Positions 1-6,000 of a DNA stretch of 28,410 nucleotides are shown here, piece after piece. Position numbers: made by a program. Origin of the DNA: a candidate division WOR-3 bacterium. GTDB taxonomy: Bacteria; Hydrothermota; Hydrothermia; LBFQ01. How positions within the stretch are numbered: position 1 is the stretch's first letter; each line of letters opens with the position of its first letter. Location: positions 1 to 28,410 of the forward strand of contig JALUCS010000110.1 in assembly GCA_027050205.1 (NCBI GenBank). The letters run 5' to 3'.

Positions 1-3000
1 TACTTCTCCATCGCCATCGTCCTTGATTCCATCTCCTACGGATGGAGACGCCCCATTCCCATCTTCCCCTCCGTTTCCTACGAACTCAACCAGCTCGCCG
101 CCGTAAAATACCTTACACAATCTTAGTAGTATGTCCCGGAACCCCTTGTTCTGCGAGGTGCCGATATAGTCGCCGTATCAAAGGAGAGGATGAAGGAAAT
201 ACCCGAAGGAGCGATAGAGATACCGCCGGACCTGATCGTTGAGATAGTATCGCCATCGGACAGTGCCGAATACGTTCAGGGTAAGATGAGGAACTACAGG
301 GATTGGGGGGTGCTAAGGCAGGTGTGGATTTATCCGAAGGTCAGGGAGGTGGTTGTTGTGGATGAGGGAGGGGTATTTGTTTACGGTGAGGAGGATGAGG
401 TTGAGGTTCTGGAGGGGGTGAGGTTCAGGTTGGGGGAGTTTGTGAAGGGGGTAGGCAATTAGGTTGCAACAACTTCCCCACAGAGGAGATTTACAGCTAT
501 AAACTACGCTCTATGCTGTGGGTTATAACTCTTTCCTCCGGCATAGAAGCGAAGGCTGACTTAAGGGCCGTAGAGGCCTACAACGAGGGTATTCGTATGC
601 TCTTCACAGAGAACGCCGGTCAGCTTTCAGATGAGGTGGTTTTCTACAGCATGCACCCTTCGGTCGTCTATGTTCTCAAGGACGGGACGATATACATCAA
701 CGGAGTTAGGGTATCTTTTGGGTCAAAGCCGAGATTTATAACCGGAGATATGCCGCTTATAACGAAGATATCGTATTTTGGGAGGAACAAGGCCATAAGC
801 AACATACCGACGTACAGACGGGTTGTTTTGAAGGAGGTATATCCGAAGATAGATGCTGTGCTGACGGCTGACGGTAGGGGGGTCGTTGAGCTCCAGTTTA
901 TCGTCCGTCCCGGAGGGGATCCGAGCCAGATAAGGGTTGAGACGGATGGGGATGGGGAGGTGAAGGAGAATGGGAATGGCCTTTACATCGTCAAGGGTGG
1001 TAAGGAGGTCGTGAGGGTAAGCAACCTGAAGGCGTATCAGGGGGCGGAGGAGGTGGAGGTTAAGGTGGATGTAAAGGGTGAAGAAGTTCGGTTCATAGTT
1101 GATGATTGGGACGAAAAGCATACGCTTGTGATTGACCCTGTTATAACAACTATTTTGGCTTCTGGACATTACGATCGTGCCGAAGCTTTAACAATATACG
1201 CTGGTTATGTATATATAGCTGGAAAAACAGATTTTTCTGCAAATTTCTCACAAAGCAGGAATTTCTTCGGTACAAGTGATGGACTGCAAGATGCTTTTGT
1301 AAGTAAATTGGATTTGAATTTATCGACACATATCGCTACCGCTATTTTAGCTTCCACCGGTTCTGACGGAGCTCATGCTGTAATAGCAGACAGTAGCGGA
1401 GTTTATGTAGCTGGATGGACTACAAACTACTCTAACTTTGCTCCAAGTAGGAATGTTTTTGGCACTACAGGTTCAACCGACGCCTTTATAAGCAAATTAG
1501 ATCCATCTCTTTCAATTCACATAGCAACTGCTATTTTAACTTCCAGCGGTTCTGATGAGGTTTATGATATAGCAATAGATAGTAATAGTATATATGTTGT
1601 AGGTTATACAGGAAATTCCTCTGATTTTGCGCCAAGTAGAATAATATTTGGCTCCAGAGGTGGAAGTGATGTGTTCGTTAGCAAATTGAATAAGGATCTA
1701 TCATCTCACATAACGACCACTATATTGGCTTCTACAGGCAACGATGGAGCCTATGATCTGGTGATCAAGGGAGATAATATTTATGTTGCCGGATTTTCCG
1801 GCAATCCATCAAATTTTGCTCCTTTTAGAACATTCTTTGGTGCTAACGGTGGTGAAGGAGGATTTATAAGTAAATTAAGCTCAAATCTGTCTGTTCATAT
1901 GGCCACAGTTATATTGACTTCTAGCGGTAATGATGTGATTAACTCAATAGCGATATATGATAGTAGCATCTACGCAGTAGGGCATACGGGTAATTACTCT
2001 AATTTTGCACCGGGTAGGAATGTTTTCGGTTCTCCTGGATGGCAAGATGCTTTTGTAAGTAAGCTAACTTTAGATTTGTCCTCTCACATTTCAACGGCTA
2101 TTTTAGCTTCAGATAGGGATGATTATGCGCTCGGTTTAGATGTTGATAGCAGTGGAGTTTATATCGCAGGGTGGACTGATAGATCGTCTAACTTCGGCTC
2201 TTTTAGGACGTTTTTGGGAACTCCCGGAGGAAGAGATGCTTTTATATGCAGGATGAATAAAGATTTGCTTTATTATATAGAAGCGGTTATACTTACTTCC
2301 AGTCAGGAGGATCAGATATCATATTTGGATATAAATAATAATAATGTTTATGTTACAGGATATACCGCAAATCCTGATGATTTTGCTCCCAGTAGAAATG
2401 TTTTTGGTACTACAGGAAGCGGTGATGCTTTTATATCAAAGCTCTCAATACCTCTTAATATACGAGAGAACCCCGATAAAGTTAAAAATTCGGTAGATTT
2501 TCTTAAAGGAATATTAATCATAAATGTTATATCGCCCGCCTACGTCGGCTTTGACGTATATTTGGCCGATGGCCGCCTGATCAGGCGCGTCAGCCTCGGC
2601 TACCTCCCCGCCGGGAGATACGAGTACCGCCTGAAGTTGCCCAAAGGAACCTACCTGCTGAAGGTCAGGGTCGGGGACGAGGTGAAGACCTTCAAGGGGA
2701 TAATGTAGCCTCCTTTCCCTACCCCCCATCTCCCCTCCGCCTCTACAATCCCCACCTATGCTTTCGGAAACCTACAAGGGCAAGATAGTTTCAAACGTTC
2801 CCCTGTTGGACTACGCTGAGAGGTTAAATATAGCCCAATCCTACGGGTACAACGTCCACAAGATCCCCGCTGGCTACGTCTTAGTGGACCTCTACGACTT
2901 CACCCACAACGGGCTTTCCGAGGACCAAATGGGCGCCCTCTTCCGCGGAGACGAGGCCTACGCCGGCAGCAAGAACTTCCTGAAGATTCTCCGCAAGGTT

Positions 3001-6000
3001 AAGGAGATTTTCGGCAAGGATTGGGTGGTCCCCGCCCACAACGTAAGGGGGGCGGAGCATCTCCTGTTCAAGGCCTACGGTGAGAAGGCCGAAGTCGCCG
3101 CCTACCACCCCACCCCCACCTTCCGCGTCCTAGCCAGGTACTTCAACGTCCCCGTAAAGGAGTACGACACCCCCGACGACACCCCCGGCGGCACGCTGGC
3201 ATACATAAACACCACCCCCAAGAACGCCCATGAGATAGACCGCTGGATAAGGGAGGCAAAGGCCAAGGGGCTTATGGTGGTCGTGAACGCCTCCCGCATC
3301 TTCTCCCTCCTCGCCTTCCACCAGATCAGAGAGGGAGGCAAACCCTCGGATCTGCGCGGTAGGGTGGCCGAGGTTTTAAAGGACGCCGACGTGATAATCC
3401 TTGACGCCACGCACGACCTCTTCTCCCACGTTGGAGCCTTGATAATAACGGGCAGCGAAGAGATATACCGCAAGTTCCAGAGCTGGGTCGTCTCCTTTGA
3501 GGGACTCCACACCTACGGAGGTCTGGCCGGCAGGGACATGGAGGTCATCGCTATCGGTCTGGACGAGGCCCTTAGGGAAGACTACTACGTCTGGAGGTAC
3601 CACGAGGTCAAACGCCTGTACGAGGCCGTCAAAGAGGCCGGGTACGAGGTAGGTCCCCACTTCTCCCCCACCGGGTTCCCCATCCTGCACGACGACCCCG
3701 TCTCCCTCAACCTCGCCCTCTACCTCGCCGGACAGGTCAGGGGGAGTGCCAAGGCGAAGAAGGGACGTCTATGCCTCCACCTACCCCGCCGCACCTACAC
3801 CCGCGAACATTACGCCCACTTCGTAAAGACGCTGGCCTACCTGAAGGACAGGAGCCTCCCCAAATTGGTGGCGGCCTACGAGACGGACTTCCACGAGGAG
3901 GAGGTGATGGACTACGAGCCGGAGGGCCACATACCGCGGTACGACGTTATCCCCTACGAGGGCTACCCCTACCGCTTCAAGTCCGTTGAGCTTCTGAAGA
4001 TGCGGAGCCGCGAGTACAGGGAGAGGGCCATAGAGGAGGCCGGTTTCAACACCTTCCTGCTCAAGAGCGAGGACGTGTATATAGACCTCCTGACGGACTC
4101 CGGCACCTCCGCCATGAGCGACGAGCAGTGGGGAGAGGCCTTCTACAACGAGTGGAAGGACCCCTACTCCTTCCTGGCCCAGGCCGTTGAGGACGTCTAC
4201 GGCTTCCCCTACTTCATCCCCACCCATCAGGGGAGACAGGCGGAACATTTCATCTCCCAGGCCCTGATAAAGCCCGGCCAGTACGTCATAAACAACATGT
4301 ACTTCACCACCACCCGCTTCCATCAGGAGTACGCCGGCGGCATCTTCGTAGACCTGATAATCCCGGAGGCCCACGACCCGGCCGCGGAGCATCCCTTCAA
4401 GGGCAACCTTGACGCCGAGAGGGTTGAGGAGTTCATAAAGGAGAAGGGGGCGGAGAACATCGCATACATCTGCATAGAGACCAACGTAAATATGGCCGGA
4501 GGCCAGCCCGTATCCCTTGAGAACGTACGCCGCATAAGGGAGATAGCCGACCGCTACGGCATACCCGTGGTCTTTGACGCCACCCGCATAGCCGAGAACG
4601 CCTACTTCATAAAGACTCGTGAAAAGGGGTATGAGAACTGGAGCATAGCCCAGATAATAAGGGAACTCCTATCCTACGCCGACGCTGCCAGCATATCGGC
4701 CAAGAAGGACCCCCTGACCAACATAAGCGGCCTGCTCCTTGTGAGGGACCCGGACGTCTACGCCCGGATATACGAGTTCGCCACGGCCTTTGACGGCTCC
4801 CCCTACGACGGAGGCCTCGCCGACAGGGATCTGGCCATACTGGCCAAAGGGCTTTACGAGATGACCGACTACGATTACATAGCGAGCCGCATAAGGCAGG
4901 TGCAGTACCTCGGTGAGAAACTCCATAGCCTTGGGATACCGGTCGTCAGGCCCATAGGTGGCCATGCCGTCTATCTGGACGCCAAGAGGTTCCTGCCCCA
5001 CATACCACAGGACGAGTTCCCCGCCCAGATATTGGCCGCCGAGATATACGTAGAGGGTGGGGTGCGGACGATGGAGAGGGGTACCGTCTCCGCCGGGAGG
5101 GACCCGAAGACCGGAGAGAACCGTAAGCCCAAACTGGAGCTGGTCCGGATAACGATACCCCGCCGGGTCTATACGACCGACCACATGGACCACGTCGTTG
5201 AGGCCATCCTTGGCGTCTGGAACAGGAGGGACAGCATAAAGGGCCTTGAGTTCGTCTATGAGGCTCCCTTCTTGAGATTCTTCACCTCAACCTTCCGCAG
5301 GAAGGGGTAAGGTAAAGGGGGGCCTGTACAGGCCCCCTCCACTGCTTTAGAATACCCCTATATAGGGATGGAAAGGTTGATAGTTAAGAATTTTGCTGGG
5401 ATCAAAGAGGCGGAGCTAGAGTTCAAGGACATTACCGTCCTCATAGGGCCGCAGGCAGAGGGGAAGAGTGTTATTGCGAAGTTGATGTACGTTATGATGG
5501 AAATGATACAGCTTAAAGTTTTATATAAAATTCAAAGTATTGTAAGAAATAGAACAAAAGGTAAATTTGATTTTTTTAAGAATAATGAGTGGATACTGGA
5601 ATTTTACAAAATATTTCCAAAAGACTTTATAATTCCCAGAACTAGAAACAGAACAAGCTATATTATTTTTCAAATGGATAGAAATAGAAATATTTCTAGA
5701 TCAATCAAATCAAAGATCCTCTTGAGAAAGAACTCCCAAGAATTTGTTATAAGCAACATAGATCCTATTGCCCATGAAATGGCTGACAGAATAATTAGCG
5801 CCTCAACAAAATTCTTTGAACATAATGTCGCGATTAATATTGTTGATGTTATCTATAAGTTTCTATTTTATAAGCAATATCCAATACAGATATTTGTACC
5901 AGCGAACCGATCAATATATGCCCTTGTAAAAAATCTTCCTATAGTATGGAAAAGCTCATCACTAGATCCAGTATTCATAGATTTCGGTATGACATATGAA

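Follow-up and report, generated by a model that had tools for sequence, protein, structure and literature searches.

A double-length tyrosine phenol-lyase from a WOR-3 bacterium whose two unequal bodies very likely contribute to one type of working site

The window analyzed here, a contig of 28,410 nucleotides from a candidate division WOR-3 bacterium, carries a gene described in a genome survey as a double-length tyrosine phenol-lyase (TPL) with two bodies in one chain, which raises the question of how two such bodies share the work of one enzyme. The description was borne out: the open reading frame is stop-free, and the Pfam family PF01212 covers two stretches of the 850-aa protein (Table 1). 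The two halves share 24% identity (E 1e-18), the 28% identity of the N-half to the single-domain paralogue of the genome (g00569) was reproduced (E 5e-31), and a Symbiobacterium sp. locus reached 57% on its best segment. The junction of the two bodies is bridged by contigs of three other studies (runs X2, X3 and X9) with no indel listed and is therefore not an assembly join; the gene is intact. The dN/dS values relative to G078 (0.08 for the N-body and 0.04 for the C-body) indicate that it is under purifying selection. Promoter and terminator scans gave results at chance level only, and no RNA data set was listed as containing the gene.

Table 1. Features of the fused gene and its surroundings; residue names with TPL numbers refer to the aligned TPL positions
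Feature	Position	Strand	Remarks
Whole gene, two beta-eliminating-lyase bodies	2758..5310	+	850 aa
N-body, aa 1-389; full TPL fold, predicted to be catalytically dead, putative cross-subunit loop donor	2758..3924	+	fold match, column counts, dN/dS 0.08 vs G078
N-body N-terminal arm, aa 6-13	2773..2796	+	continuous strand in full-chain model only; K9 in 115/119
Donor loop 1, G64-D-E-A-Y68-A-G70; Y68 = TPL Tyr71, E66 = Glu69	2947..2967	+	alignment, column counts
Predicted dead lysine loop of N-body, D216-A-T218-H219-D220	3403..3417	+	column counts
Donor loop 2, E248-G-L250-H-T-Y253-G-G; Y253 = TPL Tyr291 / E. coli tryptophanase Tyr307; L250 at Met288 pocket position	3499..3522	+	alignment, column counts
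Linker, aa 390-399	3925..3954	+	modelled at pLDDT 95-97
C-body, aa 400-850; predicted catalytic TPL body	3955..5307	+	fold match, dN/dS 0.04 vs G078
C-body N-terminal arm, aa 405-412	3970..3993	+	strand in model; E411 in 119/119
Remnant of C-body Tyr71 loop; four-residue deletion vs TPL	4144..4155	+	alignment, column counts
T517 = TPL Thr124, putative tyrosine specificity	4306..4308	+	alignment, column counts
D607-A-T-R610 = Asp214 + Arg217	4576..4587	+	alignment, column counts
S647-A-K649-K650-D651; K650 = PLP-binding Lys257	4696..4710	+	alignment, column counts
Degenerate C-body Tyr291 loop; D684 replaces Tyr	4792..4815	+	column counts
M772-E-R774-G = Met379 + Arg381	5071..5082	+	alignment, column counts
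R797 = Arg404	5146..5148	+	alignment, column counts
R840-F841-F842 = Arg447, Phe448, Phe449	5275..5283	+	alignment, column counts
G+C-rich terminator-like hairpin directly after stop	5318..5337	.	scored on minus strand; such sites no commoner than in shuffles

Alignment columns were counted over 119 long homologues. In the C-body, T49, S51, Q98, R100, F123, T124, N185, D214, R217, S254, K256, K257, M379, R381, R404, F448 and F449 (TPL numbering) are each found in 119/119 proteins. Tyr71 is present in the N-body of 118 of the 119, and the Tyr291-type tyrosine in all 119 N-bodies and in none of the C-bodies. The two donor loops carrying these tyrosines are the most conserved N-body segments (0.85 and 0.72 vs 0.36 for aa 111-210), and the second of them, E248-G-L-H-T-Y253-G-G, was overlooked in the survey. 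E66 in the first loop is presumably, as TPL Glu69, a cross-subunit potassium ligand, and R797 we take to bind the carboxylate like Arg404. In tryptophanase, both tyrosines act on the PLP of the neighbouring subunit (PMC2770544), and we infer that their N-body equivalents would contact the C-body site. Since the C-body keeps the same-subunit residues and the N-body keeps the two donor loops, one site per chain is well supported; as both loops are partitioned alike, the complementary retention noticed earlier stands on firmer ground than when it was proposed, and the residue pattern makes a complementary one-site design highly probable.

The motifs S647-A-K649-K650-D, D607-A-T-R610, T218-H219 and G64-D-E-A-Y68-A-G70 were all found where the survey had placed them, and other details had to be revised. 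R802-R803, named in the survey among the residues kept by the C-body, are not the catalytic arginines: by alignment offset they correspond to TPL R409-R410, a pair also kept in the N-body (R344-R345; 71/119 and 90/119 of the homologues), and it is R797 and R774 that are equivalent to the catalytic Arg404 and Arg381. Loss of the DATR motif from the N-body is correct for the Asp (N177) but not for the Arg, as the Arg217 equivalent R180 is still there; N-bodies across the homologues mostly show the reverse (D in 87/119, R in 20/119). A C-body tyrosine in 55 of 73 sequences could not be reproduced: Tyr occupies the Tyr71 column in 20/119, the motif G/A-D-E-x-Y occurs in 0/119, and any Tyr lies within the 462-468 span in 49/119.

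The retention of D214 (87/119) and R100 (83/119) in the N-bodies exceeds, as judged from the alignment, the needs of a fully dead pocket; G99 (79) and a Ser at 216 (110) are likewise frequent. A pocket that is still alive, binding PLP non-covalently or a ligand and thereby regulating the C-body site besides donating loops, would fit these counts as well as the lysine that 10/119 N-bodies keep at one of the two lysine positions, and a similar proposal, a low-confidence prediction, exists for glycine decarboxylase (PMC7259800). However, Arg404 is present in none of these ten N-bodies, the 850-aa protein carries N177 where TPL has Asp214 and is missing sequence through the 123-126 region, and the partner C-body lacks both tyrosines needed to complete an N pocket. 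A structural role may explain the retained residues, and a live N pocket appears quite improbable.

The survey had assigned no substrate to the fused protein. Residues that distinguish TPL from tryptophanase have been published (PMC5805759), and they come out TPL-type here: at four of the five diagnostic positions (Thr124, Met379, Arg381 and Phe448) the C-body has T517, M772, R774 and F841, each in 119/119 homologues. The fifth position, Met288, is filled by L250 of the N-body; it is Leu in 119/119 N-bodies and Met in characterised TPLs, and Leu is also found there in 100/119 single-domain relatives, 98 of these with the full TPL-type set. The tryptophanase residues Asp137, Phe304, Val394, Ile396 and His463 (E. 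coli numbering) are absent from the fused protein, which has T, L, M, R and F instead, and are largely kept by the separate single-domain gene of the genome (D, F, V, I, H). Moreover, the fused protein passes the TPL model TIGR02618 with 784.8 vs a cut-off of 720.7, a score summed over both bodies, and stays under the cut-offs of TIGR02617 and NF053783, and in the tree the C-bodies lie with the TPLs (97). Another substrate, such as a substituted tyrosine, DOPA or an S-alkyl cysteine accepted via a changed composite pocket, could be suspected from the Leu at 288 and from a neighbourhood that hints at no pathway: 52 flanking ORFs from 23 loci cluster only in twos and threes, and a Pfam scan of 28 of the 52 revealed no common theme. 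Against this, T124, M379, R381, F448 and F449 are invariant, the TIGR02618 cut-off is passed, and no other TPL-type match was found in the genomes of the order carrying the fused gene, which renders another substrate highly improbable. Based on the diagnostic residues, tyrosine is very likely the substrate.

The partition of residues is compatible with a site formed within one chain, as proposed in the survey, or between two chains. The confidence of the full-chain AlphaFold model was reproduced (pLDDT 93.8, pTM 0.92). In tryptophanase, residues 12-17 and 58-60 of two subunits build a sheet that makes up the non-catalytic interface (PMC2770544); their counterparts in the fused protein are about aa 7-12 and 52-54. 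DSSP assigned strands 6-13, 53-54, 405-412 and 453-454 in the full-chain model; in the N-body folded alone, strand 6-13 is reduced to two short bridges and 53-54 is absent. The pLDDT of aa 1-10 is 93 in the full chain and 75 in the N-body alone, and that of the donor loops 77, 76 and 71 vs 81, 83 and 81, a comparison confounded by the different alignments behind the models (119 long proteins for the full chain; 11 N-halves and 86 single-domain proteins for the N-body) and, since even solved tetramers show a flexible Tyr291-type loop (PMC2770544), not specific as regards the low values of this loop. Additionally, the Phe453- and Pro7-equivalent columns lie 15-25 residues apart in 115 of the 119 proteins scored (17 here; 9 would be the native termini), the shortest linkers thus extending only 6 residues beyond the native termini. 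The distances underlying this linker argument are assumed values.

A chain that forms its own catalytic pseudo-dimer, with arm pairing of chains still possible, would agree with the defined two-body arrangement that the pTM denotes, with linkers that place the anchor columns as much as 25 residues apart, and with glycine decarboxylase, a fold type I enzyme whose two fused bodies carry the lysine in the C-half (PMC7259800). Arm strands seen in the full-chain model only, the conservation of both arms, donor loops that gain no confidence from the C-body and the short linkers speak against it; secondary structure and confidence of the model favour an arm-exchanged non-catalytic pair, and the survey's view of one chain as its own catalytic dimer is unlikely and probably wrong. 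The geometry, read indirectly through DSSP and pLDDT, suggests that two chains probably build the working site together, and not one chain by itself. The interface picked by AlphaFold need not be the native one. In a complex prediction of the full chain with the N-body fragments aa 50-110 and 207-295, one control came within 0.20 of the job score, so the prediction counts for neither geometry. In two structure searches, none of the top 50 chains was aligned over more than about 450 residues, and glycine decarboxylase did not appear in the lists, absences which exclude nothing. The 4obu match in one of them extended across model residues 58-828, of which 340 were aligned.

The fused gene was found whole or partial in 16/19 genomes of the order. 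Many WOR-3/Hydrothermia records at NCBI are 467 aa long and begin at an internal Met, which could mean that the 467-aa product is the true protein and the N-half a relic, untranslated or in decay. However, six of eleven such records reproduce exactly the C-terminal 467 residues of 831-832-aa proteins, the other five matching at 439-466, and the column of the internal start is Met in only 17/119. Furthermore, the dN/dS of the N-body is low, a C-only protein would lack both Tyr71 and Tyr291, and no free-standing N-body, such as split genes would give, occurred among the best 120 of 4239 matches of the N-half search; the relic explanation is hardly credible. The records rather represent an annotation trap, in which start-site trimming gives 467-aa 'tryptophanases' although the genes are of TPL type and almost double that length.

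An origin by fusion of adjacent TPL and tryptophanase genes was considered and rejected: the N-bodies carry L-H at 288-289 like TPL-type single-domain proteins instead of Phe, which speaks against tryptophanase as a parent. Such adjacent pairs were present at 4/80 loci listed, and the tree does not place the N-bodies. A second group of long proteins (864-909 aa; P0244, P0245, P0247 and P0248) has N-halves that mostly still carry lysines and C-halves without Arg381 and Phe448, which would imply another substrate. The free tree put this group apart, but its independent origin was not supported, the joint N-half tree being 36.5 log-likelihood units better (p-AU 0.78). Long branches affect both results. 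It is a doubtful, speculative proposal that a tether at the non-catalytic interface restrains the small domain of the N-body, which must swing shut for catalysis, and so sets which half dies, the same polarity having arisen twice, in the TPL family and in the second group. If true, a route from homotetramer to half-site, trans-complementing dimer would have been repeated and caught at two stages, unlike in glycine decarboxylase.

Taken together, we propose, with a probability of roughly 0.6 for the reading as a whole based on residue patterns and models, that the protein is a tandem-duplicated TPL in which each chain accounts for one working site, located between head-to-tail chains, and which converts L-tyrosine to phenol, pyruvate and ammonia. 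As the sequence shows, the C-body provides PLP binding (K650, D607, R610, S647, Q491-G-R493), substrate binding (R797, T446, S448) as well as the phenol pocket (T517, M772, R774, F841, F842), and the N-body only the parts reaching into the neighbour's site (Y68, E66, L250, Y253), each site thus requiring a pair of N-body and C-body. Inside one chain the bodies would sit as the arm-exchanged non-catalytic pair, and hence two chains would join head-to-tail, the N-body of one on the C-body of the other, rebuilding the TPL particle of four bodies, in which two sites would be live and two dead; a monomer would be inactive. In its order, the fused enzyme appears to be the tyrosine lyase beside a normal single-domain tryptophanase.

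TPL and tryptophanase are long-studied homotetramers, and L-DOPA is made industrially with TPL (PMC10170061). The fused protein would be a natural split of same-subunit and cross-subunit site halves onto independently mutable bodies, which makes testable the contribution of the neighbouring subunit, the cooperation of the two sites of a catalytic dimer, and specificity via cross-subunit pocket residues. The fold of TPL (EC 4.1.99.2; Citrobacter freundii, Erwinia herbicola; PDB 2ez1, 1c7g, 6dvx) is common to both bodies: the C-half matches a TPL structure with Z 57.9 and rmsd 1.2 over 447 residues, the N-half folded alone with Z 41.2 and rmsd 2.2 over 382 residues. The full catalytic set is present once per fused chain and the N-terminal arms are retained; TPL, however, is a homotetramer of identical subunits of about 456 aa with four full sites, whereas the fused chain has two unequal bodies, neither of them complete. 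Tryptophanase (EC 4.1.99.1; PDB 1ax4, 2c44) shares fold and quaternary plan, and the N-half alone scores slightly higher with that of P. vulgaris (126.8 bits) than with TPL (118), but the diagnostic Asp, Phe, Val, Ile and His are missing from the fused protein.

No description of a fused or duplicated TPL or tryptophanase, or of TPL in WOR-3, was found in a literature search covering few subscription journals; by analogy, the design has precedents in glycine decarboxylase and the single-chain serine palmitoyltransferase of viruses and is apparently undescribed for TPL. In the Emiliania huxleyi virus enzyme, the PLP-enzyme subunits LCB1 and LCB2 are fused in one gene (PMC5371807). There, the fused partners were already distinct as subunits of a eukaryotic heterodimer, in another fold type I family. 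The viral single-chain enzyme is asymmetric, with one site. The glycine decarboxylase P-protein (GcvP/GLDC), called an unusual fold type I member for its fused layout, likewise consists of two homologous fused bodies, the N-body without the PLP lysine (PMC7259800), and the fused TPL resembles it in having two homologous fold type I bodies with the lysine mainly in the C-body (10/119 N-body exceptions). It differs from GcvP, which also occurs as split alpha/beta genes, in family and reaction. The in-chain pair of glycine decarboxylase is the catalytic pair. The fused TPL is a further case of this layout, perhaps with another geometry, as the models favour a non-catalytic in-chain pair.

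In the gene listed first in the table, PF01212 was matched at two places by Pfam. The chain comprises an N-body (residues 1-389), a linker (390-399) and a C-body (400-850), and as a whole it scored above the TIGR02618 tyrosine phenol-lyase (TPL) cut-off and below both tryptophanase equivalog cut-offs. Residues 400-846 aligned with TPL 3-453 with a sole gap of four residues at the Tyr71 loop, past which TPL numbering equals query numbering minus 393. The two halves share 24% identity, and the N-half modelled by itself was predicted to adopt the TPL fold in full (382 residues, Z 41.2). 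Contigs from three other studies span the N/C junction with no indel listed, and dN/dS against the orthologue in genome G078 was 0.08 (N-body) and 0.04 (C-body). Within 2720-2760, TACAAT lies 9 bases 5' of the ATG and no Shine-Dalgarno-like run precedes it; the transcript is possibly leaderless. In the flanks, the 193-aa ORF had no Pfam match and likeness of its pair to PtuA and MAD3 was weak, and the pair looks like an inserted defence-type pair; the RIP and Csx26 matches upstream were weak, with no passing stretch.

Features and records considered in the analysis
Feature	Position	Strand	Description
Fused TPL-type gene	2758-5310	+	ORF of 850 aa, contig C110 of source genome G000
Upstream ORFs	190-2708		Uma2-like nuclease ORF; 731-aa DUF7948 protein with low-GC middle
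ATPase and small ORF	5368-7162		AAA_15/AAA_21 ATPase, low GC (0.39-0.42), then overlapping 193-aa ORF
Memo-like protein	15121-16284		387 aa; about 110 additional N-terminal residues beyond the Pfam match
Single-domain paralogue	L002:1366-2706 (C60 of G000)		Tryptophanase-type (D124, F288, V379, I381, H448), kept across the order
467-aa records			P0096, P0100, P0395-P0399, P0401, P0411, P0413, P0415

Catalytic residues were compared across 119 long proteins aligned as halves (the query and those 118 of 120 listed matches that had 788-937 aa; two 467-aa matches were excluded from the counts) and 119 single-domain relatives (118 listed matches and the genome's own gene). Residue roles follow PMC10170061 for TPL, PMC5805759 for residues diagnostic of TPL or tryptophanase, and PMC2770544 for tryptophanase. 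Among the listed long proteins, C-body T49, S51, Q98, R100, F123, T124, N185, D214, R217, S254, K256, K257, M379, R381, R404, F448 and F449 (TPL numbering) were each found in 119/119, the Tyr71 motif and Tyr291 in none. In TPL, Arg404 serves in carboxylate binding and Glu69 as the cross-subunit potassium ligand. The N-bodies of the same proteins carry Tyr71 in 118/119 and E-G-L-x-T-Y291-G-G in all 119, these two donor loops being the best-conserved N-body segments, and have a lysine in 4/119 at the 257 column and 6/119 at the 256 column, none of the ten lysine-bearing N-bodies having Arg404. All 118 listed single-domain matches combine both loops with the lysine motif. Each subunit of the E. 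coli tryptophanase contributes Tyr74 and Tyr307 to PLP phosphate binding in its neighbour (PMC2770544), and Phe304 is given as the equivalent of TPL Met288 (PMC5805759); Tyr307 thus corresponds to TPL Tyr291 and to N-body Y253. Since N- and C-bodies retain opposite residues, a working site would require one of each, and the survey's finding of complementary halves with one site per chain is borne out at the level of sequence. The retention of D214 in 87/119 and R100 in 83/119 N-bodies of the listed long proteins counts against a fully dead N pocket; the query has Asn at the Asp214 place. R802-R803, previously named among the residues kept by the C-body, correspond to TPL R409-R410 and are present in most N-bodies too, the catalytic ones being R797 and R774.

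That finding had also placed the catalytic dimer within one chain; the pairing of an N- with a C-body stands, but the predicted arm strands and the linker length favour assembly between chains. TPL is a tetramer in which N-terminal arms interlock two catalytic dimers (PMC10170061). In the non-catalytic pair of tryptophanase, each subunit gives residues 12-17 and 58-60 to a shared four-strand sheet (PMC2770544), and residues of the arm sit where the two dimers meet (PMC13578870). By alignment, the sheet residues correspond to N-body residues of about 7-12 and 52-54. Strands at 6-13, 53-54, 405-412 and 453-454 are seen in the full-chain model (pLDDT 93.8, pTM 0.92), where the linker stands at pLDDT 95-97 and the donor loops are the lowest blocks (77, 76, 71). 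When, as a control, the N-body was folded without the C-body, with an alignment that differed from that of the full-chain model, strand 6-13 was reduced to two short bridges, 53-54 was lost and pLDDT of residues 1-10 fell from 93 to 75, whereas the donor loops stood at 81, 83 and 81; the C-body therefore appears to order the arm, and not the donor loops, in the model. In crystal structures, too, the Tyr291-type loop is flexible (PMC2770544). The columns equivalent to Phe453 and Pro7 lie 15-25 residues apart in the 115 of 119 proteins scored (17 in the query), and 9 of these residues belong to the native termini. In the TPL tetramer as we take it to be arranged, such a linker would fit a connection between the small domain of a subunit and the arm that rests on it, and would presumably be too short to reach the arm of the catalytic partner. 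The simplest reading, to which we assign a probability of roughly 0.7, is that chains pair head-to-tail into a dimer with two live sites.

Four of 150 listed representatives (P0244, P0245, P0247 and P0248; 864-909 aa) also have double length, and their halves show the same polarity. Their N-halves carry both donor loops (4/4) and are less decayed, S-G-K-K being retained in three; their C-halves carry the lysines, D-A-T-R and Arg404 (4/4), Tyr71 in two and Tyr291 in none. The M-E-R-G and R-F-F motifs (Arg381/Phe448) are absent from these four C-halves, and the substrate is probably not tyrosine. A free tree set this group apart from the fused TPL family; in a test, common origin of all N-halves was not rejected, and the tree that unites them scored better. 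The four could represent a second event, or else a branch of one old duplication in which decay has gone less far. Separately, a single-domain TPL-like clade (L146, L147, L148, L158, L159; P0263, P0294) has Arg at Lys256 and D-G-S-L or similar in place of the Arg217 motif, with M-E-R-G and R-F-F retained, and possibly has altered chemistry. Among the same 150 representatives, single beta-eliminating-lyase bodies also occur inside much longer proteins (P0269, 3002 aa; P0288, 1552 aa; P0373, 1036 aa; P0301, 805 aa).

All 19 genomes of the order have the single-domain gene, with at most one further match each, and the 17 such genes looked at were all tryptophanase-type. The long gene was whole in 13, split across two contig ends in one, reduced to an N-terminal fragment at the edge of a contig in two and not found with the queries used in three. 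Genomes from other parts of the class and phylum have it too, as do records named Deltaproteobacteria, Anaerolineales, Nitrospiraceae and Acidobacteria; close relatives carry the label WOR-3 or Hydrothermia. At four of 80 listed loci (L031, L039, L078, L081), a TPL and a tryptophanase gene stand side by side without being fused. Of the eleven 467-aa records, most of them NCBI 'tryptophanase' entries, six are identical to the C-terminal 467 residues of 831-832-aa proteins and five match long-protein tails at 439-466; the residue at their start is Met in just 17/119 listed long proteins. These records are C-terminal tails of fused TPL-type proteins, and we infer a trimmed start call, which would explain why the double-length form was missed.

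Four of five residues diagnostic of TPL or tryptophanase are TPL-type in every C-body of the listed long proteins; the fifth, given by the N-body, is Leu, as in 98/119 single-domain relatives, with the set T-L-H-M-R-F. In a quick tree (126 rows, with a sample of 30 from the 119 long proteins) C-bodies fell on the TPL side (support 97) and N-bodies formed one side of a branch (99), with support of just 76 for the C-bodies as a single group. No description of a doubled TPL came up in a literature search whose scope left out most subscription journals. The fused protein would work like TPL, but it is not a canonical member, because it is not a homotetramer of full subunits. It is a real and widespread variant of a known design, apparently not described before, and the design has precedents in glycine decarboxylase (PMC7259800) and viral single-chain serine palmitoyltransferase (PMC5371807); its twist, which is open to testing, lies in how the site is assembled.
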